DNA from: Clostridiales bacterium
GTDB lineage: Bacteria > Bacillota > Clostridia > Monoglobales > WRBX01
Assembly (NCBI GenBank): GCA_031261985.1
Contig: JAISIR010000007.1
Location: forward strand, 786-64,785
DNA: 64,000 nucleotides
Reading direction: 5' to 3'
Below, piece after piece: positions 26,782 through 46,188 of the stretch; position 1 is the first letter of the stretch; each line of letters begins with the position of its first letter. Position numbers and translations under genes: made by a program. Below the pieces are notes generated by a model that did no database searches, was not told the origin of the DNA, and was given only the letters and a program-made list of their open reading frames with translations.

Positions 26782-27543
26782 ATGTATGACAAAAATGAGT
26801 TAAACGAATTAAACGAATTGGCTAAGAAAATTTTGCCAGAAGTAGAAAAGCGCGCACTAAAGTTTATCGATGAAAACATGCCAGAGCATAAAAAGTGGTA
26901 TAAGAATCGTTATGCGATTATGAAATTTAATAAAGATTATGAGATTGCATATGATGATATTGATAAACATGTAAGTATAAAGACCGAGGATTTTAGGGTT
27001 TATCTTATTTTGCATCCCGAAAAAGGAATTGAAACGGCAGCAAGGGAAAATGATTTAGAAGAATTCAAAGAGCTTTTGAACGATGTTTTAAATAATATAG
27101 ACAATATTAGCTTTGATAAAATAATCGCATCGCCTAAAAAAGGATTGTACAGAAAATTAGTAGCAAGTAGTGATATTGCCGAAGGCTATGACAGGGCAAA
27201 AGATTTGATTGAATATCAGGAATATACCGAGCGTATTAACAAAATCACTTTAAAATATGAATCCGAAAGAAAGCTTTCTGAAGATAGACTAAAACGACCT
27301 TTTCAGCCTAAAGCTAAGCAACCTATTCTATTACATTCGAATTCATTTATGGAAAGAGTACATATTTTCCCGAAGGACTTAGCTACTAAAAAATCGGTGC
27401 GTGAAGAAATTAGCAAAAAGAAAAATGAAACCAAAAATGGAACGAAAAATTGGAGCGATAAAGCTAAAAGTCATCAACGCGCGGTGGCAAAGGCAAGCCT
27501 TAAAAAGGCGCAACAGATGAAAAAAGTGGGTAAAGGTAAGTAG
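26782..27543 (+). CDS. Orphan protein with highly basic C-terminal tail
   Basis: 253-aa ORF, GGGGAG RBS, own promoter; ends KASLKKAQQMKKVGKGK. Confidence 0.75.
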   Translation: MYDKNELNELNELAKKILPEVEKRALKFIDENMPEHKKWYKNRYAIMKFNKDYEIAYDDIDKHVSIKTEDFRVYLILHPEKGIETAARENDLEEFKELLNDVLNNIDNISFDKIIASPKKGLYRKLVASSDIAEGYDRAKDLIEYQEYTERINKITLKYESERKLSEDRLKRPFQPKAKQPILLHSNSFMERVHIFPKDLATKKSVREEISKKKNETKNGTKNWSDKAKSHQRAVAKASLKKAQQMKKVGKGK

Positions 27544-27699
27544 AGCTAAAATATAAATATTATTGTGAAAAAAGAGTGATTTTATATCCTCTTTTTTTAA
27601 TTTACATGAATATTGTCGAATAACATTATTTATTAGGTTAGCATAGAATAATATGTAACAAAAGATGATATTTGTTTAGAAAAAATTGGAGGTTGTAAA

Positions 27700-29199
27700 A
27701 TGAGAATTATAAGAACTAACGACAACAAAGGAACGACCAATGTTTCTTTTGTAAAGATTATGTCGGACGGGGAAAGTAAAATTGCAACAACGAAAATTTT
27801 GATGTTGTATTTTACACCAGGTATTTTAGGGCTGACGCTTGACAATATAACGCTAGCGGGCGCGCGAAAAGTTGCGTTGAACGATGCGTCGTATGGTAAA
27901 GGGTCAATATACTCGCTTGCTATTGATGATATCTCGGTACTAGATGGCGAAGAAGTAACAGTTACAATTACGCCACCTGAGGGATATGCTGTTGACCCTA
28001 CCTCACTATCTGTAGTGGTATATGTAGATGATGGAACAACGGATGTAAAGTTCCTTTCGTTAACAGCAGATGGTTCACCAGGTGCGGAAACGAGCGTGGC
28101 GTTGATTATGAAATTTTCGCCGGGTGTTATAGGTTTAACGCGTGATAATATTAGTGCAGAGGGTGTAACACTAGGCGAGATAACAGATGTGTCGGGCGTA
28201 GGAACAATCTACTCGCTGCAATTAAAATCGGTAGATGTACCAAGCGGTAGTGATGTAACAGTGACTCTTACAAACCCTGTAGGGTACAATATACTTCCGC
28301 TTTCTATGTCTTGCAAAATCGGCGTTAACGAGCTTATTATTCCTAAAGAGGGTAAAGTAATAGGCCCGCAGGATGATGAAGTTTCGTTAGATTTAGACAG
28401 GCTTGTTTTTGAAGCGGGCGGTGTTCTTACTGTAAAAGGTACTAGATTTATGTTGAATGCTAGAGAAATCCAGATGCAGGAAGGACAGCATGCGCCTTAT
28501 CAGATACAAATCATCGGGAAAGACGGTGCAGACGGTGCGATAGGTGCTCGTGGCGGTAACGGAGCTGCAGGTAGCGATGGAAGTAAAAACACTTGCAAAC
28601 TAAGCGGGACAGAAGTAGGTAATGCACCAACTCCTGGTGACCGTGGTCAAGACGGTGCCATGGGTGGTTTTGGTGGCGACGGTGGCATGGGAGAAACAAA
28701 CAAACATGCTGAGTTACACTTAGGTAAAGTTAATGATACGTTTAAAGTTATGGCTCGTGGTGGCATAGGCGGAAAAGGCGGCAATGGCGGCACAGGCGGT
28801 AACGGAGGCGCAGGCGGAAAAGGTGGAGCGGCGCATTTTTGTGCTGCAACAATTCCATCACACCCTGGCAACGGTGGTCAAGGTGGCGACGGTGGCCAAG
28901 GCGGATTTGGTGGCGTAGGTGGTAAAGGTTCCGACGGGACGGATATTGATGTATATATCGGTGCAGCGTTTGAACAAATGTATGCGTTTGAAGCATTAGA
29001 AGCTCCAGCTGGGGCAGGCGGTGCAGGCGGTGCAGGCGGTAATGGTGGTGCAGGTGGATCAAAAGGCGACCATACCAAAACTCCACTTTGTCACGATGCG
29101 CAAGATGGTAATCCAGGAAGTGTTGGGCATAAAGGATATGATGGAAAATCGGGCGATGTGTTAGGTAAGAAACCCGTGATATATGTTCACAAGATATAA
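27700..29199 (+). CDS. Protein with two ~100-aa beta-rich repeats and a Gly-rich (collagen/PGRS-like) C-terminal half
   Basis: Repeats GTTNVSFVK...VTVTITPPEGY and GTTDVKFLS...VTVTLTNPVGY; long GGxGGxG runs; GGAGG RBS. Confidence 0.8.
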   Translation: MRIIRTNDNKGTTNVSFVKIMSDGESKIATTKILMLYFTPGILGLTLDNITLAGARKVALNDASYGKGSIYSLAIDDISVLDGEEVTVTITPPEGYAVDPTSLSVVVYVDDGTTDVKFLSLTADGSPGAETSVALIMKFSPGVIGLTRDNISAEGVTLGEITDVSGVGTIYSLQLKSVDVPSGSDVTVTLTNPVGYNILPLSMSCKIGVNELIIPKEGKVIGPQDDEVSLDLDRLVFEAGGVLTVKGTRFMLNAREIQMQEGQHAPYQIQIIGKDGADGAIGARGGNGAAGSDGSKNTCKLSGTEVGNAPTPGDRGQDGAMGGFGGDGGMGETNKHAELHLGKVNDTFKVMARGGIGGKGGNGGTGGNGGAGGKGGAAHFCAATIPSHPGNGGQGGDGGQGGFGGVGGKGSDGTDIDVYIGAAFEQMYAFEALEAPAGAGGAGGAGGNGGAGGSKGDHTKTPLCHDAQDGNPGSVGHKGYDGKSGDVLGKKPVIYVHKI

Positions 29200-29312
29200 T
29201 GCAAATATTCAAGCTAGAAGCGTAAAACGCTTCTAGCCCTACATACGACTAACTTTGCCAAGTTAAATTAGGGTAATAAGAAAATGTGTCGTATGTAAGG
29301 AGATGAAAACAG

Positions 29313-30977
29313 ATGAGAAAAGTTTTTAGAGGACAAACACGTGCGAGGATAGCATTGTTTATGGTGCTTGTATTTTTATCGAGCATACTTTTAACGTTTT
29401 TTGTAAAGCCCGAAAAAGCTTATGCGAGCGCGTCCATGGGAGCGTATACGTTAGGGGACCCTAATGATTTAGTTAATGAAGGCGATTCTTTATACGCTGC
29501 AATTTACGAAAGTGAATTATTAGAAGCTCCTACCACTTTTGCTGATAATGTAGCCGAGGGTTTGACTAATGATGATAATTATATATCCATTCCGTTTTTG
29601 GGTAAGCTAGAACTAGGTGGCAGCGCAAGTTCGCAATACTATAGCGGCAAAAATAAAGATGGAATGTATGCTAATACCGAAACATTAGGTTTAGATGTCA
29701 TTACAGAAAGCGTGAATATAGTTAAAGCTGAGCTAGTGGGGTTATATCCTTCTGGAGAGGAAACAGTACTAACATTATGGGATTATAGTAATTATATTTA
29801 CGATGAAGATGATGAAAACGATACAGAAACAAAGTCGTTATATCAAACAAAGCTTACTAAAAATGTTACAGATAGTTTGAGTAATAATTCACAAGGTACT
29901 ATATCGCCAGGCAAGACTTTTGACGATTTTAGGATTTACTTTAGTAATGGTAGTGGTAATGGCGTGTCGAGTGAAACCGCATCTAGATATGATAAAAACA
30001 ACAACAAATGGGATGCAGCGACTATGCACTTCCCTTCTTCTGATGAGGATGATGGAATTTTAGAGGGATATTATATGCCGGCGGCAAAGTATAATAGTAT
30101 AAAACTAAAACTTAATTTTTTTACTGCAGGCGAGATAAATAGTCCATTGTTTGAGCTTGAAAATAATTTAGAAACTAGAGATTCAACTATTGAGCCGGGT
30201 ATGCGAAGTGATTATTATACGATGTATAATGCCTTTCCGTTAGATGCAACAGGAGGAATTACAGCATCGGCAGTTTACGCTAACAAAGAGTTTTTGTTTG
30301 AAAGAAAAACTTCTGATGCAGAGGGTAAAGAAGTATCTGGCAATATTGCTAGTGCATATAGAGGCTCTGTGGCGATTGGAGGGCAAAACTTTTTGTCGGG
30401 AGGCGAGAATCAAAGCGATGGTGGGTCTTCACAAACCGACATTGGTGGTGGAACGGGCGACGTTGATACCGATGGAGGAACAGCATTAGAACCTGGTGAT
30501 GGCGCAAATGTTGATGGCACAGGGGATAACGCATTACCTGGCGATTCTTTGCAAGCAACCGATTGGAAGACTGCTTTGGGTATATTCTTTGATGACCTGG
30601 TTATCTCTAACGATGATAACAGAAGGAGTATTGGTGATATTACGATTAATATAATAGGGAATACCGTCATGAATACAATTGGTAATTCGGTGGGGGATAT
30701 GCCTAATTCTATTTTGAACAGATATGAGCATTCATTGACGCGTGCAGATGTAGCCGTTGCGATTTATGAGCGTTTACAATTAAAAGGCGGTGGCGGTAAC
30801 GGTGCGTTTTATGATGTGGACGCTAATGCGTGGTACGCAAAAGCTATAAATGGTTTGGAGAATGTAGGGATTATTAAGGGTTATGGCGATGGTACGTTTC
30901 GTCCTAATTCTATTATAACTTTAGAAGAGTATATTGCTCTTATTAGCAGGGCGGTTCTTTGGAGCTGGCAAAATTAG
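29313..30977 (+). CDS. Secreted S-layer homology (SLH) domain protein
   Basis: Signal peptide ending AYA; C-terminal LTRADVA...FYDVDANAWYAKAI...GIIKGYGDGTFRPNSIITLEE. Confidence 0.85.
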   Translation: MRKVFRGQTRARIALFMVLVFLSSILLTFFVKPEKAYASASMGAYTLGDPNDLVNEGDSLYAAIYESELLEAPTTFADNVAEGLTNDDNYISIPFLGKLELGGSASSQYYSGKNKDGMYANTETLGLDVITESVNIVKAELVGLYPSGEETVLTLWDYSNYIYDEDDENDTETKSLYQTKLTKNVTDSLSNNSQGTISPGKTFDDFRIYFSNGSGNGVSSETASRYDKNNNKWDAATMHFPSSDEDDGILEGYYMPAAKYNSIKLKLNFFTAGEINSPLFELENNLETRDSTIEPGMRSDYYTMYNAFPLDATGGITASAVYANKEFLFERKTSDAEGKEVSGNIASAYRGSVAIGGQNFLSGGENQSDGGSSQTDIGGGTGDVDTDGGTALEPGDGANVDGTGDNALPGDSLQATDWKTALGIFFDDLVISNDDNRRSIGDITINIIGNTVMNTIGNSVGDMPNSILNRYEHSLTRADVAVAIYERLQLKGGGGNGAFYDVDANAWYAKAINGLENVGIIKGYGDGTFRPNSIITLEEYIALISRAVLWSWQN

Positions 30978-31002
30978 ATATAGATGTGTATATGGAAAGC
31001 AT

Positions 31003-31034
31003 AAAAATTCCTTGCCAGCGGCAAGGAATTTTTT
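31003..31034 (+). terminator. Bidirectional Rho-independent terminator
   Basis: aaaaattccttgcc-agc-ggcaaggaattttt. Confidence 0.8.
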
Positions 31035-31147
31035 GGGTGTGTGGCGAAAGCAAGTGCAGAAGTGAAACAATAGGAATAAGTGAAAAGTGAAAAACGAAGA
31101 GTGAAAGGTTAAAAGTACAAAACCTGCCAAGCAAGCTTGGCAGGTTT

Positions 31148-31223
31148 TGGCTGAGATGGCAGGATTCGAACCTGCGGATGCTAGAACCAGAATCTAGTGC
31201 CTTACCGACTTGGCGACATCCCA
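31148..31223 (-). tRNA. tRNA-Gln (CTG)
   Basis: Reverse complement TGGGATGTCGCCAAGTCGGTAAGGCACTAGATTCTGGTTCTAGCATCCGCAGGTTCGAATCCTGCCATCTCAGCCA. Confidence 0.95.
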
Positions 31224-31260
31224 ATATAAAAGGATAATGAAAAATGGAGAACTCCGCTTT

Positions 31261-31550
31261 AATGCAGAATGAATAATGCAAAATGAATAATGAAGGAAAT
31301 AAATTCTCGATAAATCTCGAATTTATAAATAAAGCCTCGTCATCCCGTGCTCGTCGCAACAGCTTCACGTAGCTGGTTTTTGCTAAAAGCGCAAAAACGT
31401 TGCTAGTGTTCCGCGTTGCTCCTCTTTTCCCACAAAACGAAAAGCGCGTTTTGCGGGAACCCTAGATGGAATCTATATGCTATATAGTAATCGACTGATG
31501 TCATTCTCAGTTTGCGTATAGATTGCGGGTCGAAGCCCGCAATGACACGA
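31261..31550. repeat. Cluster of 7-mer element and REP-like palindromes
   Basis: 7-mer array plus GGAAATAAATT core (31261-31336); hairpins cccacaaaacg/cgttttgcggg and ttgcgggtcgaagcccgcaa. Confidence 0.55.
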
Positions 31551-31574
31551 CACACTTTGAACATAAATTCTCAA

Positions 31575-32819
31575 TTACTTCTCGTTCATCTCATCTAATG
31601 CCAGCACGCGGGTATGTTGTGTATGGAACCACTCGTGCTTATTTTTATTGGCTATGCCTATAATAGCGATTGGTACCCATGTTAGCGAGTAGAAAGAGTA
31701 AACGATGAAGCCCCAAACTGTGCGCAGGGTAAACTTCTTCTCGACTATCAACACAAGCGGGCCCCATAAAAATTGCATGACGGCGATGACGTTCCAAATG
31801 CTAGAGGGGATAAAGCCCCAAACGATAAGTGTGGTGGTGGGGTAGGCGACTTGCATCCATGCCATAACCGTGATAACACCCATAACGATGATGCGAAGTG
31901 GCTGCATTAAATACATGGCGCAGTCGAAAGGTTTTATATTTCCTTCGGTAAAAGTCTTTTTCATTAAAGGGGCAAAGAAGCGCGATGCGACATCGGCGTG
32001 GCCTTGCATCCAACGTATACGTTGCTTCCAACTTTGGGCGAAAGTGATAGGTTTTTCGTCGTAAATTTTAGCATCGTTAGCCCACGAAACTTTGATATTA
32101 TTTAACGCAAGCTTCATGGTAAATTCCATATCTTCGGTTAGGCAAGTTGCGCCCCAACCCATTTCTTTTAGTGTATCGGCTTGAACAACAAAGCCGGTGC
32201 CAGAAAGTTGGCAGCCAAGACCAAGATTATACCTAGCCTGCTGGAATAGTTTGTTAACCGTCCAAAAAGCGAGTGAATATGAATACGAAATCCAGGAATC
32301 GTTAGGGTTTTTACTATCTACATAACCTTGAACAGCTTTATGCCCAAGCTGAGTTTGCTTGTTCATCTCGTGTAAAAAGTTAGGGTCTACTAAGTTATCG
32401 GCATCAAAAATTGCCACGTAATCGTACTGACGCTCCATATTAAATAGTTTATCGAACATCCATTCTAGCGCGAAGCCTTTGCCACGTTTATCGGCATTAG
32501 AGCGTTCAAAAACGTTTGCGCCAGCGGTTCGTGCAACATCGGCGGTAGAATCGGTGCAATTATCGGCTATTACGAAGATATCGTAAAACTCGCGCGGGTA
32601 TTTAAGCTTAGTAAGGCTTGTTACCATGTTTTTGATAACAGCTTGCTCGTTATGCGCGGCAACTATTAGTGCAAAGGTATTATGCCCGCCTGGGATATCC
32701 TTTGGCTTACGACGTGGGATAAAGGCGAACAGAGATATGATGAAGTAATATGTACCCAACATTAAAAATAAAATTTGGACTGAATAGTTAATATACAAAA
32801 GCATTGACGGTTCTTGCAT
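31575..32819 (-). CDS. GT2 family processive glycosyltransferase (membrane-bound)
   Basis: IVAAHNE, ADNCTD, FDADN, LTEDME, QRIRW (QxxRW); ATG 32819 after AAAGGAG. Confidence 0.9.
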   Translation of the reverse strand: MQEPSMLLYINYSVQILFLMLGTYYFIISLFAFIPRRKPKDIPGGHNTFALIVAAHNEQAVIKNMVTSLTKLKYPREFYDIFVIADNCTDSTADVARTAGANVFERSNADKRGKGFALEWMFDKLFNMERQYDYVAIFDADNLVDPNFLHEMNKQTQLGHKAVQGYVDSKNPNDSWISYSYSLAFWTVNKLFQQARYNLGLGCQLSGTGFVVQADTLKEMGWGATCLTEDMEFTMKLALNNIKVSWANDAKIYDEKPITFAQSWKQRIRWMQGHADVASRFFAPLMKKTFTEGNIKPFDCAMYLMQPLRIIVMGVITVMAWMQVAYPTTTLIVWGFIPSSIWNVIAVMQFLWGPLVLIVEKKFTLRTVWGFIVYSFYSLTWVPIAIIGIANKNKHEWFHTQHTRVLALDEMNEK

Positions 32820-32891
32820 AATTAGCCGCTCCTTTTGGTAAACGATAGTTATATATAAATTTATGTATTGACATTTTAACTCAACAATAGT

Positions 32892-32955
32892 ATTATATAC
32901 TATATTGAAACAAAATGCAAGCATTTTTTTAAAGTTTTTGTTAAATTTTTGTTAA
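32892..32955 (-). promoter_or_regulatory. TTAACA-N5-TTAACA box plus sigma-A promoter of the glycosyltransferase
   Basis: Minus strand: TTAACA-AAAAT-TTAACA (32955-32939), 18 bp, TTGCAT (32920-32915), 17 bp, TATAAT (32897-32892). Confidence 0.75.
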
Positions 32956-33012
32956 AATTTTTACTAAAACATCCATTTATACATTCTTATTCTATGTAGG
33001 GAAGAAGAAAAT

Positions 33013-34461: not shown

Positions 34462-34527
34462 CTTGAATGAACAATGAACAATGAACAGTTAAGGAAATAA
34501 ATTTTTGCTAACGCTCAAATTTATGAG

Positions 34528-34583
34528 TTAACACAAATTTAACATTTAAAAGTATTGCATTTGCAATACTTTTGTGCTATAAT
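34528..34583 (+). promoter_or_regulatory. TTAACA-N5-TTAACA box plus sigma-A promoter
   Basis: TTAACA-CAAAT-TTAACA 34528-34544, 10 bp, TTGCAT 34555, 17 bp, TGnTATAAT 34578. Confidence 0.75.
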
Positions 34584-34616
34584 ATTATAAAATTGATTAT
34601 TTGGGGGAAGTAGTAA

Positions 34617-35027
34617 ATGAGAAAAGAAAATATGAATCATGCTATAAAACTTTTGGAACATGTATCGGGCGATAAATATAACGAGACTCTAAAGAATATT
34701 CAAGATACTATGTACAAATATGGGAATGACCAATGGTGGCTATCGAATGATGTTCAATATAAGGCTTATCGTCAAGCGAACGAAAATATGATGCTTATAA
34801 CGCCTAGGGAATTTGCCGATGGTGTAAACTTGATATTAGACAAAGACTTTACAATGGACGAGATTGCTTGGTTGGCTTCTGATATTAGGGAAGCTGTGAA
34901 TAAGGCTTGGGATAAGAGATTGAAGTCGGTTAAAAAAAGCCTTAAGAATAATAATCGTGTTGCTAGGGATAAGGGCAAAGGGTCGAGGGTATCGCACAAG
35001 GTTGGTGCGCTTAAAAGGCCGAGGTAG
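34617..35027 (+). CDS. Orphan protein with highly basic C-terminal tail
   Basis: 136-aa ORF, GGGGGA RBS; ends KRLKSVKKSLKNNNRVARDKGKGSRVSHKVGALKRPR. Confidence 0.72.
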   Translation: MRKENMNHAIKLLEHVSGDKYNETLKNIQDTMYKYGNDQWWLSNDVQYKAYRQANENMMLITPREFADGVNLILDKDFTMDEIAWLASDIREAVNKAWDKRLKSVKKSLKNNNRVARDKGKGSRVSHKVGALKRPR

Positions 35028-35042
35028 CGGAAACAAATGGGA

Positions 35043-36446
35043 TTATAGCGGCTTAATTTCTATTTGAGGTTGCCCGCCATTATGGCTTGATTTATGTATG
35101 AACGCTGGAACTTGAGGTCTTATATTAATTAGCTCGCCTCTTGTATCATCAATTAGCTTTTTAATGTTATCCGAAGATTGCATTTGTTCTTGCCATTCGG
35201 CTATTTTGGTATTCAAGCCATAAGTTCCATTTACAAAATGGTCTATTTTGTTTGTATTCAATCCTTCTTTTTTAAAAGCTGTCCAAAGCTTGTCAATAAT
35301 TCCTTGATACGCGTCCCCCACACGCTTTATCCACTCGGGCGGCATACCAAGCGAAAGTTGTCTTGTAAAGCGGCTATATTCTGAAATATTTATAGTTCTG
35401 CCTAATTCTTTTTGTATTTTTAACTCAAAATGCCTATGACGAGGGTCTAGTAGTCTTGTTAGAATCTTACTTTCTGGGTCTTGACAGGTATAGTGCGTTT
35501 CACCTTGTTTCTCTGATAAATCAATAAAGCTTAAACCAGCATTTTTATCAAACATAACATTTTCGCCGATTTCATCATAACCAAACGCAATTTTTTTATC
35601 AGATACCAATAGTTTTACACCATGGACAAAACTATCTATCTGCTCTTGCGATAAATTAGCGATTTCTTCTAATCGAGTGGGGTATTTGTTTATATCAGCC
35701 ATATAATGCTCATAAATTTCGTCAATAGTTTTATCGGTTTTTGCAAACGAACCTTGCGAGCAAGTGCCTTCGTGAACAGGAACGCCGACGGCACGCTCTT
35801 GCAACATAAAACCATAAGGCTGGGTTGGGGCGTTGCCACCTTTAAAACAAAAACGGTGGAATTCTGCATCATCTTCTAAAGTGTGGTCTAGTGTTCTTGG
35901 TGTATTTATGCCAGATTCTATTGCATAGTCAAGCTCGGGTTTTAGCGCCATTAATTTTTCTATATCACTTTTTGGAGCATATAACAAAGCGCTGTCATCA
36001 AGAGTAAAGCAGAATTTAGTTGTTCCTCTATGGTCGTACTCTCTGCGATTTTTGGCTTCGGTTATAGCGTTAGATAGTTTTAAATGGCTAATATCTTTTA
36101 TCATTATTCTACTTTTGGGTTCTTGGGGAGTATACCCAAGTTTAGTATAAAAACTAACTAAATCGCCCTCTCCACTTGCAAAAAGACGAATGGATTTACA
36201 ATTATTCTCGGCAGCTTTATTTTCAAATTCTTTCATTAAGGATATAGCGAGTCCTTTTCCGCGTAAATCGGAGCGCACCCATAAATCATCAATAAGTATA
36301 GACCCATCGGTTTGTGGAGTTTCGCCTAAAACATGGCATAATTCTTGCCCAGTTTCTTTTGAAAATAACTGTATATATTCCCAATTGTAATTAACTATTT
36401 CTGCATTAAGCGACAATGCTTTTTGTTGCAAAGATTCGATCTGCAT
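35043..36446 (-). CDS. GNAT acetyltransferase fused to a putative protein-kinase-like domain
   Basis: LWVRSDLRGKGLA...LVSFYTKLGY (GNAT); HRGTTKFCF, GINTP, MLQERAVG, DEIGENVMFD, FIDL (kinase-like); GGAGGTG RBS. Confidence 0.72.
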   Translation of the reverse strand: MQIESLQQKALSLNAEIVNYNWEYIQLFSKETGQELCHVLGETPQTDGSILIDDLWVRSDLRGKGLAISLMKEFENKAAENNCKSIRLFASGEGDLVSFYTKLGYTPQEPKSRIMIKDISHLKLSNAITEAKNRREYDHRGTTKFCFTLDDSALLYAPKSDIEKLMALKPELDYAIESGINTPRTLDHTLEDDAEFHRFCFKGGNAPTQPYGFMLQERAVGVPVHEGTCSQGSFAKTDKTIDEIYEHYMADINKYPTRLEEIANLSQEQIDSFVHGVKLLVSDKKIAFGYDEIGENVMFDKNAGLSFIDLSEKQGETHYTCQDPESKILTRLLDPRHRHFELKIQKELGRTINISEYSRFTRQLSLGMPPEWIKRVGDAYQGIIDKLWTAFKKEGLNTNKIDHFVNGTYGLNTKIAEWQEQMQSSDNIKKLIDDTRGELINIRPQVPAFIHKSSHNGGQPQIEIKPL

Positions 36447-36478: not shown

Positions 36479-36542
36479 ATTATACTATTATATTTTGTCA
36501 AAGTCAATGGCAATTAAGCGGTTTATGTTAGGTTTGTGTTAA
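36479..36542 (-). promoter_or_regulatory. TTAACA-N5-TTAACA box plus sigma-A promoter (minus strand)
   Basis: Minus strand: TTAACA-CAAAC-CTAACA (36542-36526), 18 bp, TTGACT (36507-36502), 17 bp, TATAAT (36484-36479). Confidence 0.78.
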
Positions 36543-36682: not shown

Positions 36683-36759
36683 GGCGGTGTAGCTTAGTCG
36701 GCTAGAGCATTCGGTTCATACCCGAAAGGTCGGTGGTTCGATTCCACTCGCCGCTACCA
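36683..36759 (+). tRNA. tRNA-Met (CAT), elongator type
   Basis: GGCGGTG acceptor, anticodon loop TTCATAC, GTTCGATTC, encoded CCA. Confidence 0.93.
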
Positions 36760-36838: not shown

Positions 36839-36902
36839 TTAACATAAATTTAACATAACTGTCTATTTTACTATTGCATTTTATCTAAAAGTATGGTATT
36901 AT
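36839..36902 (+). promoter_or_regulatory. TTAACA-N5-TTAACA box plus sigma-A promoter
   Basis: TTAACA-TAAAT-TTAACA 36839-36855, 18 bp, TTGCAT 36874, 17 bp, TGnTATTAT 36897. Confidence 0.78.
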
Positions 36903-36913: not shown

Positions 36914-37528
36914 GTGATACATATGCCAAGTATAACAACGTTATTTAATAATGACACAAAAGACCAAATTGATAAACCGCAAGTAGATACTAATAAAACT
37001 ATGGGGGAGAACCATCCGGATTTTCATAATTTAGTTTCTGTTGCTAAAAGTAAGGAATTTGGTAAGAGTAATGCAGAGTTTTTAGGTGGCACAGCAATAC
37101 AATCGCTTAGCTTGGTAGCCGAGACTTACGCTGCAGTTATATCTAATGTTCCAGCTGCGCTAATGTTTGCCGGTACCTATGCGCTTGGCACGGCTGCAGT
37201 TTTCCATGGAATATACGGTAATAAGCAACTTGAGGATTTTGCAAAAGTTATAGCGAATAATCCTGAGAAGGACGTAAAAATATCGCAAGGTGTTAAGAAT
37301 AAGTTATTAAAATATTCAAAGATAAGTGACCTTAAATATACCGAGAACCCTGTTACGGTGCTTAATTCTATTTTAGTAGTGCCAGATAAAGAGTATAAGG
37401 CACTTGTGAAGGCGACTAAGGCGAAGTTGAAAGCTTCGGTTCGTGGGAAAATTGGCAAGCATGGGAAGAAGGCTGCGGCGCCCACGCCAGAGAGTTTGAT
37501 TGTGAACCCGCCGATGATGAAAGTGTGA
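36914..37528 (+). CDS. Orphan protein with central Ala/Gly-rich hydrophobic hairpin and basic C-terminus (start may be ATG 36923)
   Basis: AAGGAGTG RBS; LGGTAIQSLSLVA...LGTAAVFHGI; KATKAKLKASVRGKIGKHGKK. Confidence 0.72.
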   Translation: MIHMPSITTLFNNDTKDQIDKPQVDTNKTMGENHPDFHNLVSVAKSKEFGKSNAEFLGGTAIQSLSLVAETYAAVISNVPAALMFAGTYALGTAAVFHGIYGNKQLEDFAKVIANNPEKDVKISQGVKNKLLKYSKISDLKYTENPVTVLNSILVVPDKEYKALVKATKAKLKASVRGKIGKHGKKAAAPTPESLIVNPPMMKV

Positions 37529-37617: not shown

Positions 37618-37755
37618 CGGGTATCATACCCCAGGGCAAGCCCTGGACCCTCGCGCAAAAAGCGCGCGTTCGGTTCCGCGGCAAGCCGCGGGGTATTGAA
37701 CCCGGCTGTCGGTGTAAAAAATGATTTTGTGCAAGCACAATCATTTTTTACACCT
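37618..37755. repeat. Cluster of GC-rich GCAA-loop hairpins
   Basis: ccagggcaagccctgg, ccgcggcaagccgcgg, ggtgtaaaaaatgattttgtgcaagcacaatcattttttacacc. Confidence 0.6.
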
Positions 37756-37781
37756 CGAATAAAAAAATAATCCCTAGGGGA

Positions 37782-39857: not shown

Positions 39858-39882
39858 ATTTATGACCTCGTTTGCGCGACTT

Positions 39883-39985
39883 TAAAATTTGCTAAAACGC
39901 AAATTGCATTTGCTATGTTCCAATGTCGCTTCGGCATATATGTATATAGCCTTCAGCTCCATTGAAACATTTTAGCTAAATTTTA
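39883..39985. repeat. ~100-bp palindromic intergenic element, copy 1
   Basis: TAAAATTTGCTAAAACGC...TCCAATGTCG...CTCCATTGAA...TTTAGCTAAATTTTA; second copy 55342-55446. Confidence 0.8.
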
Positions 39986-40024
39986 TAGTGCTTAGTTTTA
40001 TATTTTTGTATTCTTATATTTTGA

Positions 40025-41128
40025 TTACACTATTTTAATATAACTTTTAGAGTTTAGGCGTTTTACTTGGTGCGTAAGCTCTAAAATGGCAAGCTGCGCG
40101 TTAATGGTAGGGATAGGAAGATTAGTGCGCATGGCTAAAGTATCTAAATTAGTAGGCACGCTTGAGTTAAGGTGGGATAGAATGGTTTTTTGGGTAGCGT
40201 TGGTGCTGGTATGTGATGCCCCATGTGCGCCAGATGTGCCGACAGTGGTTGACATAAAGTTTGGCGAGATATTTAAGTGCTTGCAAATATCCTCGGGTGC
40301 GGTGGCGATGATTCCGTTGGTTTTTAGTAGCTCGAAGTTACCGGTTGCGCGGATATTATCTAGGTTAGAGGGGATGGTAAATATCGGCTTATTTTGCTTG
40401 CGCGCGTGGTCGACAGATGTCATTGAACCGCTTTTTATTGTACATTCCATAACTAAAACCGCCTGAGACAGTGCGCTGATGATTCGGTTGCGAGTAGGGA
40501 AGTGGTTAGAAACAGGGGCGGTGTGTGGAGGATACTCGGAAAGGACTATGCCATTATGCGCGATTAGCTTCATAAGAGCTTTATTCTCGGCTGGGTAGGA
40601 AGTATCTAGGCCGTTGCCGACGACCGCAATGGTGTTGCCGTTAACGCTTAAAGCAGAGGAGTGGGCTATAGTGTCGATTCCACGAGCCATTCCACTAACT
40701 ATTGTAAAGCCGCTATTGGCTAAAAATGTTGCGAAACGCTTGGTTTGTTGCTCGGCATAAATAGATGGCGTTCGCGAGCCTATAACCGCAATTGAGTTAG
40801 GGAGTTTTGTTAAATTTTGTACATCTCCTATATAATATAGCAAAAGGGGTGGGTTTGTCAACTGTTTTAATAAATTTGGGTAAAAATTATCGTTGATACA
40901 CATTATTTTTATGTCAAATTTTGCGCAATCGGCAATAATATTATTCTCGGAATCTAGTGATTTATCCATTAAAAGTTTAACCGAAGCGGGCGGGATATTA
41001 TGGTAGGCGAACTTTTCGATATCGGCATTGTAGATATCTTGCGGTGAGTTAAAATGTTTGAGCAACTTTGCACCTTTAACACGCTGAAGCCAAAGGTGGT
41101 AGAGTATGTTTTGTGTAGAATCGGTCAT
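40025..41128 (-). CDS. dprA: DNA-processing protein DprA
   Basis: PPLLLYYIG, IAVIGSR, IVSGMARGID, FPTRNRIISALS; adjacent to topA. Confidence 0.93.
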   Translation of the reverse strand: MTDSTQNILYHLWLQRVKGAKLLKHFNSPQDIYNADIEKFAYHNIPPASVKLLMDKSLDSENNIIADCAKFDIKIMCINDNFYPNLLKQLTNPPLLLYYIGDVQNLTKLPNSIAVIGSRTPSIYAEQQTKRFATFLANSGFTIVSGMARGIDTIAHSSALSVNGNTIAVVGNGLDTSYPAENKALMKLIAHNGIVLSEYPPHTAPVSNHFPTRNRIISALSQAVLVMECTIKSGSMTSVDHARKQNKPIFTIPSNLDNIRATGNFELLKTNGIIATAPEDICKHLNISPNFMSTTVGTSGAHGASHTSTNATQKTILSHLNSSVPTNLDTLAMRTNLPIPTINAQLAILELTHQVKRLNSKSYIKIV

Positions 41129-41131
41129 GTG

Positions 41132-41959
41132 CTAGCCCACCTTGATAAGTGATTTAATTTGGTACAAAGCTATACCTGTGGCGACGGCGACGTTTAGGCT
41201 TTCGGCGTTGCCATAGATAGGGATAATTACCTTATGATTGGCTATGTTTAGTAGTGAATCGTGGATTCCGTTTGCCTCGTTGCCAACAATTAGTGCAGGG
41301 GTAGCGTTTTTGGCAAGGGTAAGAGAGAAGATATCGGTTGAGTTATAAAGCGAGGTAGCGATATAGGTAAATTTATTGTTATTTTGCACGAACTCGTCTA
41401 AATTGCAACGAATTATAGGCACATTAAACAGGCTGCCCATGGTGCTGCGGACGGTTTTAGGGTTATAGATATCGGCAGAGTTATTAGATAGGATGATTGC
41501 ATCTACACCTGCGCTATCGGCTGTGCGAATGATGGTGCCTAAGTTGCCTGGGTCGGCGACATCGTCACAAAGTAGGATAAATTGGGCGTTTGTGAGCGTG
41601 GCGGTGGCGACGGGAGAATGATTTGGGATATCGAGCGGGGGGCAAATGGTGATGATGCCCTGAGGGGAATCGGTACTAGCGCATTTATTGAATAAGGAAT
41701 CGGGCATAGTATAGATATGAGTGGCGGGGTTAAGGTTGGGCAGCAAAGGGGCGATAGTGTGTTGGAAAGTTTGGGAAGTATAGAAGGAATTAGACATTAG
41801 AATATGGGTGGAGGTGTGTTTAGTTATACTTTCGAGGCATAGTTTTAAACCCTCGCATATAAAAAGATTATCTTTTTTACGACCGTGAGGGGTTTTAAGT
41901 TTAGTTATTTGCTTAATGAGTGGGTTAGTGGCTGAGGTAATGGATGTTATGTTGGTCAT
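41132..41959 (-). CDS. TrmH/SpoU-family RNA methyltransferase
   Basis: DPGNLGTIIRTAD, GNEANG, AESLNVAVA. Confidence 0.92.
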   Translation of the reverse strand: MTNITSITSATNPLIKQITKLKTPHGRKKDNLFICEGLKLCLESITKHTSTHILMSNSFYTSQTFQHTIAPLLPNLNPATHIYTMPDSLFNKCASTDSPQGIITICPPLDIPNHSPVATATLTNAQFILLCDDVADPGNLGTIIRTADSAGVDAIILSNNSADIYNPKTVRSTMGSLFNVPIIRCNLDEFVQNNNKFTYIATSLYNSTDIFSLTLAKNATPALIVGNEANGIHDSLLNIANHKVIIPIYGNAESLNVAVATGIALYQIKSLIKVG

Positions 41960-41988
41960 GTAAGGTGCGCTCCTGCATTAATATAATA

Positions 41989-42020
41989 AACCGCAATGAT
42001 TATTTCGCTTCATTGCGGTT
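41989..42020 (-). terminator. Terminator hairpin after rplT
   Basis: aaccgcaatga...tcattgcggtt. Confidence 0.65.
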
Positions 42021-42037
42021 ATACATTTTTATATGAA

Positions 42038-42391
42038 TTATGCAGACTTTTTAACTTGTTCACAAAGTGTTGCAAAAGCTTTTTCGTCGTTAATTGCAAG
42101 CTCAGAAAGCATTTTGCGATTAATTTGTATATTAAGCTTTTTTAAACCGTTCATAAATTTGCTATAAGAGATTCCGTTTGCGCGAGTAGCAGCGTTAATG
42201 CGCGCTATCCATAATTGACGGAAGTTACGCTTTTTTTGTTTGCGGCCGATGTATGCGTTAACGCCAGCCTTCCAAACTGCATCAATTGCGGTGCCAAAAA
42301 GGTTCTTGCGACGTCCGCGATAACCTTTAGCTAATTTTAATATTTTTTTGCGACGTTTATGAGTAGTCATGCCGCCTTTTATACGAGCCAT
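42038..42391 (-). CDS. rplT: 50S ribosomal protein L20
   Basis: [36 protein letters not shown]. Confidence 0.98.
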
Positions 42392-42436
42392 ATATAAATC
42401 CTCCTAGAATATTTTATATTTAAAACAGCGGCAAAA

Positions 42437-42658
42437 TTATTTTACCGAAAGTAACCTACGAATAGATTTGCTATTTGCAAGCTTTAAGTAAGAACGTTTG
42501 CGCAACTGACGTTTACGCTTGGTAGTTTTGCCATGCCCATTTAGTAGGTGGCTAGTATGAGAATGCCTAAATTTTAACAAACCAGATTTAGTCTTTTTAA
42601 GACGCTTTTTTGCACCGGAATGAGTTTTGTGCTTAACTTTTTTAATTTTGTTTGCCAT
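42437..42658 (-). CDS. rpmI: 50S ribosomal protein L35
   Basis: KHKTHSGAKKRLKKTKSG, HLL...KRKRQLR; between infC and rplT. Confidence 0.93.
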   Translation of the reverse strand: MANKIKKVKHKTHSGAKKRLKKTKSGLLKFRHSHTSHLLNGHGKTTKRKRQLRKRSYLKLANSKSIRRLLSVK

Positions 42659-42722
42659 TATTGGTTTATCCTTTCGATTTTAAAAGTTGGTTTATAAAAT
42701 GCAACTTAAAACGCGTGTGCAT

Positions 42723-43238
42723 TTACTTTTTTACACCAGCGTTTATCATTACAGCAAGGTTGCGGCCTTCCATTTTAGGTGGCTTATCGGGCGTGCCATA
42801 TTCGGCAACAGCATCGATAAACTTGGTTAAAATTTTCATGCCTAAATCGCTATGAGTAATCTCGCGTCCTCTAAAACGGACGGTAGCTTTAACTTTATCG
42901 CCATGTTCTAAAAAGCGAATGGCGTTATTTGTTTTAAAGTTAAAATCGTGGTCACTAATATTAAGCGTAAAGCGAACCTCTTTTATAATGGTAACTTTTT
43001 GGTTCTTTTTGTTCTCTTTAAGACGTTTTTTCTCTTCAAACTTAAATTTGCTATAATCGATTATTTTACAAACCGGTGGCTTAGCTTGAGGAGCTATTAA
43101 GACTAAGTCTAGCTCGGCTTCGTTTGCCATAGCCTGCGCTTCGGTAAGTGGGATAACCCCAACTTGTTCGCCCTCTTTGCCTATAAGCCTAACCTCACGC
43201 GCACGGATTTGTTCGTTAATCAGCATGTTCTTTGCGAT
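42723..43238 (-). CDS. infC: Translation initiation factor IF-3, likely non-canonical ATC start
   Basis: INEQIRAREVRLI, PPVCKIIDY, VRFRGRE; GGGAGGTG RBS 7 nt before in-frame ATC at 43238. Confidence 0.95.
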   Translation of the reverse strand: MAKNMLINEQIRAREVRLIGKEGEQVGVIPLTEAQAMANEAELDLVLIAPQAKPPVCKIIDYSKFKFEEKKRLKENKKNQKVTIIKEVRFTLNISDHDFNFKTNNAIRFLEHGDKVKATVRFRGREITHSDLGMKILTKFIDAVAEYGTPDKPPKMEGRNLAVMINAGVKK

Positions 43239-43284
43239 GGTGTGACACCTCCCGGGTTAAAATTGTGTAGAAACAACCTGAAAA

Positions 43285-43455
43285 TATAAAAATGGTAGCT
43301 ACATAATAAGCCACCACTACCTTTGTAAGTTAATAATAATCTAAAAATATAGAAAATATAAACCCGCCCGCACAAATGTTTTTGAAAAAGGCTGCAACGC
43401 CCTTTAGTATAGCAAACATAAGGCTTGGCACAAGGTGAGAGATAACTCTACTTTA
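43285..43455 (-). promoter_or_regulatory. Putative L20 leader (autogenous attenuator) upstream of infC
   Basis: Position upstream of infC-rpmI-rplT; AAGTAGAG...TCTCACCTTG 5' segment; terminator-like ggtggct...agctacc plus T-run. Confidence 0.5.
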
Positions 43456-43632
43456 ATTACATGGTTATTGTAACACAAAGGCAAAACGCTCGTCGTTTTG
43501 CATTCACACCGTTTCAATAATTACAACGGTAAAATTGCTAACGAGCAATTTTTTCCTTTAGCGTAATTATTATAACATATTATCTTGACTTTGTCAAGTG
43601 TTTGTGATAAACTTTTTTTAGGTGATTAAAAA

Positions 43633-44253
43633 ATGTACGAATATATAGTAGGTAAATTGGTAGATACATCGCAAAATTTTGCTGTGGTAGATGTTGGCGG
43701 GGTAGGGTATAAGATGATAACAAGCCAGATGACGCTTAATAATGTTGGAATTGGTGATGAGGTCAAGTTTTATGCATATCTGCATGTGCGCGAGGATATT
43801 TTTGATATTTATGGGTTTAGTACAAAAGAAGAGCGCGCAACGTTTTTGATGCTGATATCGATATCGGGCGTGGGGCCTAAAGCTGCGTTATCAATACTAT
43901 CGGTTGTTACATCGCAAGAGTTGGCTATAGCGGTGGCGGCGGGGAACAGCAAGGTGTTTACAAAGGCATCGGGCGTGGGGCCTAAAATGGCGGGCAGGAT
44001 AGTGCTAGAGCTAAAGGATAAAGTGCAAAAGGAGCATTTAAAGGGCGCAAGTTGTGATTTAGCAGCAGGCGTTGGAGTAGGTGCGTTGCCAGGCAGAAGC
44101 AATATATTAGATGCCGAGAGCGCGCTAATGGTGCTGGGGTATAATATATCGGACGCGCAAAGTGCAATTGGTGAAGTGCTAGAGAGCGTGGAGAATGCAA
44201 GTGAGATTGATACCGAGACGATTATAAAAGAGGCGTTACGATTAATGAAGTAG
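43633..44253 (+). CDS. ruvA: Holliday junction branch migration protein RuvA
   Basis: VVDVGGVGY, HVRED..IYGF, ISGVGPKAAL, IVLELKDK. Confidence 0.96.
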   Translation: MYEYIVGKLVDTSQNFAVVDVGGVGYKMITSQMTLNNVGIGDEVKFYAYLHVREDIFDIYGFSTKEERATFLMLISISGVGPKAALSILSVVTSQELAIAVAAGNSKVFTKASGVGPKMAGRIVLELKDKVQKEHLKGASCDLAAGVGVGALPGRSNILDAESALMVLGYNISDAQSAIGEVLESVENASEIDTETIIKEALRLMK

Positions 44254-44299
44254 TGCGCTCACGGAGTTTACATAAATCACAAGTAAAAGAGGTAGGAAC

Positions 44300-45307
44300 A
44301 TGATATCTGAACAAAGCGATAGAATAATAACTAGGGATTTTTTATCGGAAGATAACGAAGTCGAGTTTAGCCTGCGGCCGAAAAGTTTGAAGGAGTATAT
44401 TGGTCAGCAGAAGGTTAAAGAGAATATGAAAGTATTTATCGAGGCGGCCAAAACGCGTGGCGAGCCGCTAGACCATACGTTGTTATATGGTCCGCCTGGG
44501 CTGGGGAAGACTACTTTGGCAGGCATTATCGCCAATGAGATGGGAGTTTCGATTAGGGTTACATCTGGGCCTGCGATAGAAAAGGCGGGGGATTTAGCGG
44601 CGATACTTACTAATTTGGCTAATAATGATATACTATTTATAGACGAGATTCATCGCTTAAGCCGAAGCGTGGAGGAAGTGCTATACCCTGCGATGGAGGA
44701 TTATGCTTTAGATATAATCATCGGAAAGGGGCCGTCGGCGCGGTCGCTACGTTTAGACTTGCCCAAGTTTACATTGATAGGTGCGACGACCAAGGCTGGG
44801 GCATTGACATCGCCATTGCGTGATAGGTTTGGAGTAATATCGCGCTTAGAGGTGTATACGCTAGAGGAGTTGACTGAGATAGTTCGCAGGAGTGCGTCTA
44901 TAATGGGTGTAGATATTTACGATGACGGGGCGGTTGAGATTGCGCGGCGGGCGAGGGGGACACCTAGGATAGCCAATCGCCTGCTTAAGCGTGTGCGGGA
45001 TTTTGCGCAGGTGATGGGCGATGGCGGGATAGACCGTGATATAGCGAATATTGCTTTGAATCGCTTAGAGATTGACGAGATGGGATTGGACAAGATAGAC
45101 AAGGATATGCTTATGGCGATTATGAAGGTGTTTAAAGGTGGTCCGGTTGGGCTAGAGACTATTGCGGCGACGATAGGTGAAGAAGTTAACACTATCGAGG
45201 ATGTGTACGAGCCTTATTTGCTTCAACAGGGGTTTTTATCGCGCACGCCACGTGGCAGAATTGCGACGGATAAGGCGTTTGAGTATTTTGGAGTGGGGAA
45301 GAAATAA
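44300..45307 (+). CDS. ruvB: Holliday junction branch migration helicase RuvB
   Basis: [42 protein letters not shown]. Confidence 0.98.
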
Positions 45308-45352
45308 ATGAGAGATTATAAAGATGATGCAATGTATTAATATTATAAAGAA

Positions 45353-45793
45353 GTGGGGATTGCTGTGTTTAACGAATTTATCTTTGTTTTTTGTATTCTT
45401 GTAATAACAGGCTTTGTATTATATTGCTTTTGGTATATATTTTTTGGGAAAAGCCCAAAAGACTACAATAAAAAAATTATGGTTACAATATCGGGCATAA
45501 GAAAAATCGATCGAAAGCTTTATTTTGATAGGGCAGCTCCTAAAGATTGGTTATTCAATTTTTTGATTAACCCAAAGCACTTCTTGCGGTTTTGGTTTTT
45601 ACCTACATTATATGAAATCAAAGTAAATTTTGAAAAAAATATTTCATCGTTTCTTCCTTCATATAAAAGATTAATGGTGAAACCAGATATATATCAAATG
45701 ATTATGGATAAAGGATTGACGGAACTTGAAGTTTTTGTAAATGAAAAAGGGGATAATTTACAAATTGATTTAGAATGGATTAAGAACATATAA
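45353..45793 (+). CDS. Hypothetical membrane-anchored protein (start uncertain)
   Basis: AT-rich ORF with N-terminal hydrophobic helix; no clear RBS. Confidence 0.5.
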   Translation: MGIAVFNEFIFVFCILVITGFVLYCFWYIFFGKSPKDYNKKIMVTISGIRKIDRKLYFDRAAPKDWLFNFLINPKHFLRFWFLPTLYEIKVNFEKNISSFLPSYKRLMVKPDIYQMIMDKGLTELEVFVNEKGDNLQIDLEWIKNI

Positions 45794-45849
45794 ATGTAGA
45801 AACATAAATAAGGTAAACATTTGCTGTGCTAATTTTCTACTATATAAAT

Positions 45850-45913
45850 TTAACACAAATTTAACATAAATTGCTTAAAAATGGTTGACTATTCTATATT
45901 ATTTTGGTATAAT
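45850..45913 (+). promoter_or_regulatory. TTAACA-N5-TTAACA box plus sigma-A promoter
   Basis: TTAACA-CAAAT-TTAACA 45850-45866, 18 bp, TTGACT 45885, 17 bp, TGnTATAAT 45908. Confidence 0.8.
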
Positions 45914-45924
45914 ATTAGTAGGAG

Positions 45925-46188
45925 ATGTTTACTATGAATCCAAAAAAACTAATTAGAACGCAATTTATGACTGCTATGAAGGATGCTATGAAAGGGCCTT
46001 TTGAATATCAACTTATTGCAGGAAAAGACTATGGGAATATAGGTGATACCAAGTTACTTAGTCTTTTTGAACATTATAATTATGAAAAATATAATGTTGT
46101 TACAGTAACTAAATTAATTAATGATTTGAGAAAAATTAAGAATAATGAAATTAAGAAGGTTAATAATGTTAGAAAAATGTCAAAATAA
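45925..46188 (+). CDS. Small orphan protein with basic C-terminus (start may be ATG 45934)
   Basis: AGGAG RBS, own promoter; ends LRKIKNNEIKKVNNVRKMSK. Confidence 0.6.
   Translation: MFTMNPKKLIRTQFMTAMKDAMKGPFEYQLIAGKDYGNIGDTKLLSLFEHYNYEKYNVVTVTKLINDLRKIKNNEIKKVNNVRKMSK

Follow-up and report, generated by a model that had tools for sequence, protein, structure and literature searches.

Substrates of bacterial type IV secretion systems are known to carry C-terminal signals with an abundance of residues that are positive in charge or hydrophobic, and in the Agrobacterium system these follow an Arg consensus and the last 19 residues of VirF are sufficient (PMC10025392 section 3.2; PMC11288057). 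In Legionella, about 40 effector genes at scattered loci are activated together by one winged-helix response regulator (PMC6989116, which cites Zusman 2007 by title). Relaxase-less systems of the monoderm type with non-conjugative roles are reported from Patescibacteria (PMC12102498), and section 22 of a 2025 review counts the Streptococcus suis 89K island as the first effector translocator of a Gram-positive and raises the question of further ones (PMC12857230). Here we describe a 20-nucleotide (nt) promoter element, the box, in a 64,000-nt stretch of DNA from a Clostridiales bacterium (the window; positions 786-64785 of contig C5 of genome G000), together with the C-terminal tails of the proteins encoded behind it and a type IV secretion operon elsewhere in the same genome, which comprises 1.44 Mb in 21 contigs, has 40% GC and is 94% complete. 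Just one DNA run is listed as holding this sequence; it comes from a termite gut metagenome and is possibly the source.

The box-regulated proteins could be targeted by their tails, which would most probably act as a common translocation signal that the coupling protein of the genome's single type IV system reads; we favour this tentatively, giving it somewhat less than an even chance. As far as the available parts of the sources describe VirB/VirD4-type substrates (Agrobacterium Vir, Bartonella Bep, F, IncN and IncP), the likeness lies in a compositional signal at the extreme C terminus of unrelated soluble proteins, in a net positive charge with Arg prominent or a hydrophobic end, and in a VirD4-type coupling protein encoded in the same genome. 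Those defined cases, however, are all Gram-negative, whereas the machine here is of a monoderm conjugative type (CD1115-family, PrgI, NlpC/P60), and enrichment of Pro with near-exclusion of Asp/Glu from the last ten residues dominates here over an Arg pattern. As in the PmrA/CpxR regulons of the Legionella and Coxiella Dot/Icm systems, a direct-repeat site marks both scattered, lineage-specific, monocistronic genes and secretion genes, and the regulator is plausibly of the same class. Unlike those regulons, the one described here belongs to another phylum, its machine is type IVA-like monoderm rather than type IVB, its box lies at −70 to −51 upstream of a full −35/−10 promoter, its regulator is represented by candidates only, and it takes in housekeeping genes and, in a sister genus, surface protein genes. 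With the Patescibacteria and S. suis 89K systems the operon shares a chromosomal VirB1/B3/B4/B6/D4-type gene set with no detected relaxase, and small paralogous membrane proteins adjoin it, four Maff2-like ones here and several VirB2-like pilins there; the available text of the two sources describes no large substrate set, common tail or promoter box for those systems (PMC12102498, PMC12857230). The organism is also a Clostridia-type spore-former, unlike the ultrasmall epibionts among Patescibacteria.

A promoter box and the tails of the proteins behind it

The box (consensus TTAACACAAATTTAACATAA) holds two TTAACA hexamers at a period of 11 bp, forming a TTAACA-N5-TTAACA direct repeat. In the standard layout it is followed by 15 nt, TTGnnn, 17 nt and TGnTATAAT, with the box at about −70 to −51, and by their sequence these promoters are of the sigma-A, or housekeeping, type. 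Allowing up to three mismatches, G000 has 78 matches, which merge into 74 sites. At two mismatches or fewer it has 58, against 11 in G001, the only other genome of the same family and a member of a different (sister) genus, and between 0 and 2 per genome in another 29 members of the order; the reversed box pattern at this threshold has 0 matches in G000. The bare pattern TT[AT]ACA-N5-TT[AT]ACA occurs 83 times in G000 and 13 times in the reversed genome, and 12 of the 14 bare-pattern sites outside the first box set are intergenic. Four genes in the genome encode OmpR-family response regulators. One of these (C5:88136-88849, minus strand), accompanied by a short histidine-kinase-like gene, has a perfect box immediately downstream (C5:87130-87149) and is our first candidate for the box-binding protein.

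Genes were taken from a simple codon-usage caller (1259 genes, covering 87.6% of the genome). A box gene was defined as the first same-strand gene whose start lies no more than 260 nt from a box that is followed by a TATAAT-like hexamer; sites lacking such a hexamer or a gene were excluded and one gene is common to three boxes, giving 67 box genes. The original prediction, made from the window alone, quoted the C termini of five orphans (genes starting at 26782, 34617, 36914, 45925 and 13227) and held that such proteins mostly end in Lys/Arg-rich tails. All five ends read exactly as written and each of the genes is preceded by a box, although our rule dropped the gene at 13227, which was counted, conservatively, among the others. 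Over the last 30 residues their net charges (K+R−D−E) are +9, +10, +5, +7 and +5, ranking within the top 14, 11, 105, 39 and 105, respectively, of the 1259 genes. Box-gene tails are basic on average, with a mean of +2.54 (median +2) against +0.10 (median 0) for the 1192 other genes (Mann-Whitney p=1.6e-9), and the difference persists when the tail is shortened to 20 or to 10 residues. ‘Mostly’ was too strong a word: tails at +5 or above are found in 16 of the 67 box genes (89 of 1192 others), and four of the nine box genes in the window are at +1 or less, encoding an RNA polymerase alpha-CTD protein, a family-2 glycosyltransferase (GT2), a GNAT-kinase and a PBP5-like protein. The GNAT-kinase and alpha-CTD proteins had been correctly singled out as lacking basic tails.

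Lys/Arg richness is the visible tip of a broader signature. Per last 30 residues, box genes encode 2.33 Asp/Glu against 3.88 in others, 2.15 Pro against 1.12, 4.87 Lys/Arg against 3.98 and 8.0 hydrophobic residues against 10.05; the shift in charge is owed more to the loss of Asp/Glu and the gain of Pro than to Lys/Arg. The signature is sharpest over the last ten or so residues, where Asp/Glu occupies positions −1 to −9 at 1-4% (11-16% in other genes), Pro positions −2, −3, −6 and −8 at 13-16% (2-4%), Gly position −4 at 22% (7%) and Lys/Arg position −1 at 34% (22%), with hydrophobic residues retained at −1 and −3. Two or more Pro among the last 12 residues occur in 26 of the 67 box genes, in 18 of the 50 genes co-transcribed behind them and in 65 of 1142 others (p=4e-14), and the last ten residues are free of Asp/Glu in 47 of 67, 27 of 50 and 317 of 1142, respectively. 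A terminal Arg is present in 9 of the 67 box genes and 10 of the 50 downstream genes (19 of 117 together), against 81 of 1127 others. When the last 12 residues were scored by position and residue class in a leave-one-out scheme, box genes separated from others with an area under the curve of 0.80 and the 50 downstream genes, which lay outside the training set, with one of 0.75.

Net positive charge and few acidic residues would also be expected if the tails were electrostatic anchors, disordered basic ends tethering otherwise soluble proteins to an anionic surface in or on the cell such as membrane lipids, teichoic-acid-type wall polymers or nucleic acid. Some tails do resemble amphipathic basic helices, as in the paired genes C5:71466 and C5:72494 with their conserved end (...NALKG.RKAG...VNKGI.K), and the regulon includes nucleic-acid-related domains (alpha-CTD, DNA methylase, HD). 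We nevertheless regard anchoring as distinctly unlikely: the median charge is just +2, the charge of the protein bodies is unshifted, being equal in box genes and others, neither the Pro enrichment nor a hydrophobic or Arg last residue is needed to anchor by charge, and for more than 100 unrelated proteins with no common process such anchoring is hard to motivate.

Box genes are AT-rich (36.9% GC against 40.6%), and the orphans tested are unique to G000, which would suit a reading of the tails as a functionless by-product of young, fast-evolving genes from one foreign pool, with the box as a reused promoter cassette. Composition as an artefact was ruled out. Draws matched for GC and length averaged 0.58 and in none of 5000 was the box-gene mean attained, a box term of +2.16 (t=5.35) remained in an ordinary regression that included GC, log length and body charge, and the tails are GC-richer than the AT-rich genes that they end (tail minus own-gene GC, +0.039 in box genes against −0.024 in others). 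Tail charge stands +3.0 above the mean of internal 30-residue windows of the same protein for box genes (n=63, p=7e-9) but +0.47 above it for others, and the N-terminal 30 residues show the reverse trend (0.18 against 1.11). The higher charge expected of box-preceded tails relative to the proteome extends to a comparison with other genes lacking a Pfam family. These were drawn from a pool of 178 non-box genes of up to 1500 amino acids (aa) lying wholly in the window, in C6:50-70 kb or on contig C11; of the 145 that were Pfam-scanned (E<=1e-5), 26 were family-less, and removal of five in probable box operons left 21. Pfam-less tails average +0.29 without a box (n=21, some perhaps spurious open reading frames (ORFs)) and +2.78 with one (n=55; p=0.004).

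Two other candidate origins of the tails were rejected. Against translated terminator stems, the last 30 coding nt pair with the sequence downstream to the same extent in the 67 box genes (mean 7.96) as in 300 genes sampled at random from the 1142 others (8.18), the Pro+Gly count of tails correlates negatively with downstream pairing, and 21 box genes without terminator-like pairing retain the signature. A single repeated DNA cassette fails, as the last 60 coding nt are similar in only one pair among the 67. A phage origin of the proteins is unsupported, 55 of 56 orphans having no PHROG family.

Lineage-specific proteins, a tailed enzyme and a J-domain array

Only 12-13 of the 67 box genes match a Pfam family above the curated cut-off and about 54 match none; the matched genes encode two multi-alpha-CTD proteins, GT2, GNAT, PBP5, HD, MurC, DUF4364, GreA, GGACT-like, RnfC and SepF proteins and one marginal case. 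The orphans had been described as lacking signal peptides and as sharing no visible similarity in their bodies, and both descriptions stand. By a crude hydropathy measure rather than a trained predictor, an N-terminal hydrophobic 12-mer is carried by 3 of the 67 box-gene products, compared with 295 (26%) of the 1142 others (p=1.4e-5), and a transmembrane-like 19-mer in 3 of 67 against 331 of 1142, the exception among the quoted orphans being the protein at 13227, which has membrane-like segments. The five bodies are mutually dissimilar, although a few small paralogue groups exist across the genome. Within the word filter of the search, the 26782 protein matched only itself among 5.8 billion clusters, and a profile search of 1.84 billion representatives with a four-member box-gene paralogue family returned those four only. 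The 34617 and 36914 proteins have no match in 30 relatives, and an ESM Atlas look-up of the latter gave noise-level matches only (0.81 or less).

Spore coat proteins are typically lineage-specific, scattered and monocistronic, without signal peptides, and the box-regulated proteins might be coat or exosporium components made by the mother cell, with tails that direct spore assembly. This very small Clostridia-type genome retains a sporulation programme, as a gerA-type germination operon (window 50492-54263), spoIIM (58507-59118) and spoIIE (61511-63442) show; spoIIR is found as well, and collagen-like or Gly-rich products are encoded by one box gene and a gene beside it. A spore-surface role is all the same the least probable explanation weighed here. 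The promoters are of the housekeeping kind (TTGnnn, 17 nt, TGnTATAAT) and not of mother-cell sigma types, and NAD salvage, DNA methylase, J-domain, alpha-CTD, GNAT and HD proteins and a secretion operon are unexpected in a coat.

A 16-kb box-driven operon (C11:141718-158090, minus strand; locus L102) encodes a DHH phosphoesterase, an isochorismatase-type enzyme, a nicotinate phosphoribosyltransferase, an NAD synthase (NadE) and a radical-SAM protein, and also an orphan N6/N4 DNA methylase, DUF5662/nucleotidyltransferase, VWA and J-domain proteins and several unknowns; the set resembles cargo that mobile elements carry for NAD reconstitution and anti-restriction. The operon promoter has a near-identical copy 1.2 kb upstream. 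The nicotinate phosphoribosyltransferase is 527 aa long, against 464-517 aa in the 119 homologues listed, and the invariant residues of its family are intact. Its C-terminal extension of about 25 residues, which ends LLPKQATKVKPVRMEISR, is absent in six aligned homologues and is a tail appended to a known enzyme.

Among genes that are not box genes, those scoring highest for tails form a tandem array of 14 paralogues with a J domain (PF00226), of 402-815 aa each (C17:119530-150730, minus strand). Their last 60 residues are 13-58% identical, with a Pro-rich stretch in 14 of 14 and an Arg invariant in the terminal column, also in 14 of 14 (12 end on it and two have one residue more); the bodies have no match in 30 relatives. 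A TTAACA-N5-TTAACA repeat is found about 100 nt upstream of the TTGACA/TATAAT promoter of the array. Beyond the array are a 665-aa and a 186-aa J-domain protein, making at least 16 extra in total, a remarkable number for a 1.44-Mb genome.

Selection on the tails is indicated by several observations: they are GC-richer than their genes, do not derive from shared DNA, are absent from boxless Pfam-less genes, were acquired by a conserved enzyme and keep an invariant Arg in 14 otherwise divergent paralogues. To judge from the sequences, this selected feature arose independently in more than 100 unrelated, soluble, lineage-specific proteins. The same observations tell against a functionless by-product of young genes, which we consider very unlikely. 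If export proves to be the wrong reading, a selected tail acquired independently by more than 100 unrelated proteins still needs an explanation.

A type IV secretion operon behind four box repeats

No secretion machinery had been seen in the window, and the genome's single type IV secretion operon indeed sits on another contig, on one strand at C6:77.4-95.4 kb. A box-type promoter is followed by genes for two Pfam-less soluble proteins (262 and 663 aa, with Pro-rich, acid-poor ends) and a VirD4-type coupling protein (PF02534, E=6e-75; NCBIfam NF045973 ‘VirD4-like, CD1115 family’ equivalog, 556 bits with a cut-off of 250), and then by those for a small GIY-YIG nuclease, four Maff2-like paralogues, a VirB6-like protein with eight transmembrane segments, PrgI, a 929-aa VirB4-like ATPase (AAA_10) and a 1674-aa NlpC/P60 protein. 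Four TTAACA-type hexamers lie in the promoter with a period of exactly 11 bp (L068:7447, 7458, 7469 and 7480; span 7447-7485), the fourth abutting a TTGCAA −35. A VirB4/VirD4 system under the same box, one of the candidates that the original prediction had named for a genome-wide search, is present as one operon. The other candidates, a type VII, type IV pilus or contractile system with the box, were not borne out: no WXG100 proteins or contractile sheath were found in the genome, the PilB/PilT-type ATPases on C9 lack the box, and the only FtsK-type ATPase gene encodes 904 aa. The contrary outcome, tails like those of other orphans in a genome with no secretion system, failed to appear in either part.

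Hexamer direct repeats with a period of about 11 bp are likewise found in response-regulator sites of Firmicutes, such as the PhoP boxes of Bacillus subtilis and WalR sites. The PhoP hexamer is TT(A/T/C)ACA-like and is matched by the box, and four repeats per promoter recall Pho promoters. Unlike the PhoP and WalR cases, the gene content here resembles neither a phosphate nor a cell-wall regulon, and most boxes lie upstream of an intact −35.

The secretion operon seems to descend from a conjugation system, to have resided in the genome for long and to have no relaxase. Three relaxase families, PF03432, PF03389 and PF02486, were the only ones searched, with 0 matches in the 94%-complete genome; no recombinase or integrase occurs among the 26 operon neighbours scanned, the flanks are housekeeping genes, and the operon's GC content (40.9%) is near that of the genome (40.0%). 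Its four-repeat promoter layout also precedes the type IV operon of the sister genus. The coupling proteins of G000 and G001 are 72% identical, against 69% for TopA and 45-52% to element-borne copies in other relatives; by this measure the operon has been kept between the two genera no less well than TopA. A solved-structure sequence search with the first two operon genes gave no match below E=0.2. A predicted complex of coupling protein residues 100-573 (four-row alignment) with the aligned last 60 aa of the 14 J-domain paralogues scored 0.54, 0.00 and 0.00, a result that weighs neither for nor against recognition of the tails.

Several features in and near the operon were noted in passing. 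The Maff2-like membrane paralogues (C6:82918-85399; L068:12918-15399) have a conserved C-terminal half (...DD..GK.KG....AGA...) and, by analogy with the Patescibacteria systems, may be several pilin-like subunits. The GIY-YIG nuclease gene (C6:82358-82672), flanked by hairpin repeats, interrupts the operon. About 10 kb upstream, C6:59000-68500 (L070) encodes a TIR-domain protein, two HNH proteins and a RiboL-PSP HEPN protein beside an insertion-sequence-type integrase, a cluster that is defence-like in its predicted content.

Tails that are acid-free, hydrophobic and basic could instead serve cytoplasmic quality control, as a ClpXP-type degron by which the co-induced proteins are kept short-lived or as a handle for DnaK and its many J-domain proteins. 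Such a make-up is reportedly favoured by DnaK and is said to resemble one basic class of C-terminal ClpX signals; the 14-member array and the two further J-domain proteins would supply extra partners, and only 2.5 kb separates clpX and clpP from the type IV genes. A tag of this kind seems unlikely. The J-domain proteins are themselves tailed, as would suit cargo more than a chaperone, Pro-rich ends are not known to be typical of the ClpX classes, and nothing links clpXP or dnaK to the box, whose presence on the secretion operon would be left unexplained.

Under the export reading, one regulator, probably one of the four winged-helix response regulators of the OmpR/PhoB type, would bind TTAACA-N5-TTAACA at about 70-80 promoters and act at the four-repeat version on the secretion operon. 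Machine and cargo would be made together, because one regulator site is common to the cargo promoters and the secretion operon. The cargo proteins, soluble and lineage-specific, would be made without Sec signals, and their last 10-30 residues, acid-free, Pro-rich, net basic and often hydrophobic then Arg/Lys, would be presented to the VirD4-type ATPase; the target cell could be another bacterium or a gut protist. The proposal of a shared export or targeting signal on co-regulated cargo thus stands as far as the shared tail, the shared box and the boxed VirD4/VirB4 operon go; transfer itself we infer. A bolder picture, about which we are more doubtful, is that an ancestral conjugation machine has turned into a chromosomal effector injector with about 100 substrates co-switched by one box, a Gram-positive counterpart of PmrA-Dot/Icm of independent origin. 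In the same joint, and equally doubtful, reading, the injector's substrates would include the 14 J-domain proteins, the multi-alpha-CTD proteins, the NAD-salvage set and the DNA methylase.

Several points weigh against export. The tail signal is compositional and statistical: no strict C-terminal motif was found, only class preferences, and after Bonferroni correction (300 tests) only Pro at −2, −3 and −6 and Gly at −4 stay below 0.05. Only about 40% of box genes (27 of 67), and 15 of the 50 downstream genes, exceed the others' 95th percentile of tail score. Housekeeping members (greA, sepF, murC, rnfC, PBP5 and the glycosyltransferase) have no tails, so the regulon is not cargo-only, and the definition of box genes rests on a home-made gene caller and a mismatch threshold. 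The coupling protein, by its sequence, belongs to a family typical of conjugative elements, and a relaxase of another or novel family could be present; the second operon gene (663 aa) is family-less. In the sister genus the first two operon genes are unrelated to those of G000 and lack such tails. The box variant there has about 22 sites by a loose pattern, against 14 in a reversed control, and the 19 of the 22 that were examined comprise six with no ORF, seven with complete ORFs and six with open-ended ORFs. Of these 13 ORFs, seven match large G000 proteins (five, read as wall-anchored) or BspA-type leucine-rich-repeat proteins (two), and tail-like ends occur in only two or three of the seven complete ORFs; the G001 variant appears mostly to front large surface-type proteins. 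Zero RNA runs are among the sequencing runs listed for this sequence. We know of no Gram-positive system with a defined C-terminal signal, and effector-injecting type IV systems with large substrate sets are, to our knowledge, known only from Gram-negative bacteria. In its available text the 2025 review gives S. suis as the single Gram-positive effector case (PMC12857230).

If the export reading is true, this would be an effector type IV system in a group of bacteria from which hardly any are known. The genome gives three linked handles on it, namely the promoter box, the tail signature and an operon without a detected relaxase, and a concrete list of substrates is predicted.

Box copies and genes within the window

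The nine box copies of the window precede genes for five orphans, the alpha-CTD protein, the GT2, the GNAT-domain protein and a PBP5-type carboxypeptidase. The first (13002..13021, plus strand, one mismatch) lies about 20 nt further than standard from its TTGACA-17-TATAAT promoter and precedes the 161-aa orphan with membrane-like segments (13227..13712, plus), which ends KIKPYKIKR. Downstream on the same strand (13860-18879) are an AAA gene (MoxR-like, AAA_5) and three Pfam-less genes (497, 165 and 461 aa); two of the encoded proteins end in Arg, and the orphan through 18879 is possibly one transcript behind the box. On the minus strand, a box with one mismatch (20965..20984) precedes the gene for a 673-aa protein with two alpha-CTD domains (18890..20911; tail +1). 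A second large box-driven protein with two alpha-CTD domains, of 1053 aa, is encoded at C1:99431-102592 (minus strand), and the genuine rpoA is at window 11161-12135.

A perfect box at 26680..26699 (plus) is followed by 15 nt, TTGCAA, 17 nt and TGTGGTATAAT, and then by the 253-aa orphan gene 26782..27543 (plus), whose product has no Pfam or PHROG family and ends KAKSHQRAVAKASLKKAQQMKKVGKGK, its last 30 aa (27451..27540) carrying the net +9. Directly behind it, and possibly co-transcribed with it, is the gene for a Gly-rich Pfam-less protein of 499 aa (27700..29199, plus), which ends LGKKPVIYVHKI (+3). The GT2, a membrane protein without a basic tail (31575..32924, minus), follows a box with two mismatches (32936..32955, minus). 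Another box with two mismatches (34528..34547, plus) precedes the 136-aa orphan at 34617..35027 (plus), which ends KVGALKRPR and has its net +10 at 34935..35024.

The GNAT-domain protein (35043..36446, minus), with its tail of +1 only partly free of Asp/Glu, lies behind a box with two mismatches (36523..36542, minus). Just downstream of tRNA-Met (36683..36759), a box with one mismatch (36839..36858, plus) precedes the 204-aa orphan at 36914..37528 (plus; net +5), whose C-terminal part reads KATKAKLKASVRGKIGKHGKK then AAAPTPESLIVNPPMMKV, with a Lys-rich stretch before the end APTPESLIVNPPMMKV; its start is likely the ATG at 36923, which is preceded by AAGGAG, and two weak paralogues occur in the genome. 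A perfect box (45850..45869, plus) precedes the 87-aa orphan at 45925..46188 (plus; net +7), which ends LRKIKNNEIKKVNNVRKMSK. The last box (63554..63573, plus, two mismatches) precedes the gene for a PBP5-type D-Ala-D-Ala carboxypeptidase (63794 onward, running off the window) with a signal-peptide-like N terminus and no basic tail.

Intergenic DNA upstream of boxes (26575-26670, 34465-34527 and 12830-12960) holds short tandem units of the aatgcag, gaacaat and ttttcac types, some runs of which form long imperfect hairpins. A stretch of about 30 nt is nearly identical at 26591-26621 and 34494-34524, and similar repeat blocks occur between the type IV operon genes. Besides tRNA-Met, tRNA-Glu (12742-12816) lies just upstream of a box-orphan cassette, and a tRNA is also found upstream of the box-like site of the J-domain operon on C17; such tRNA-adjacent sites may be insertion hot spots.

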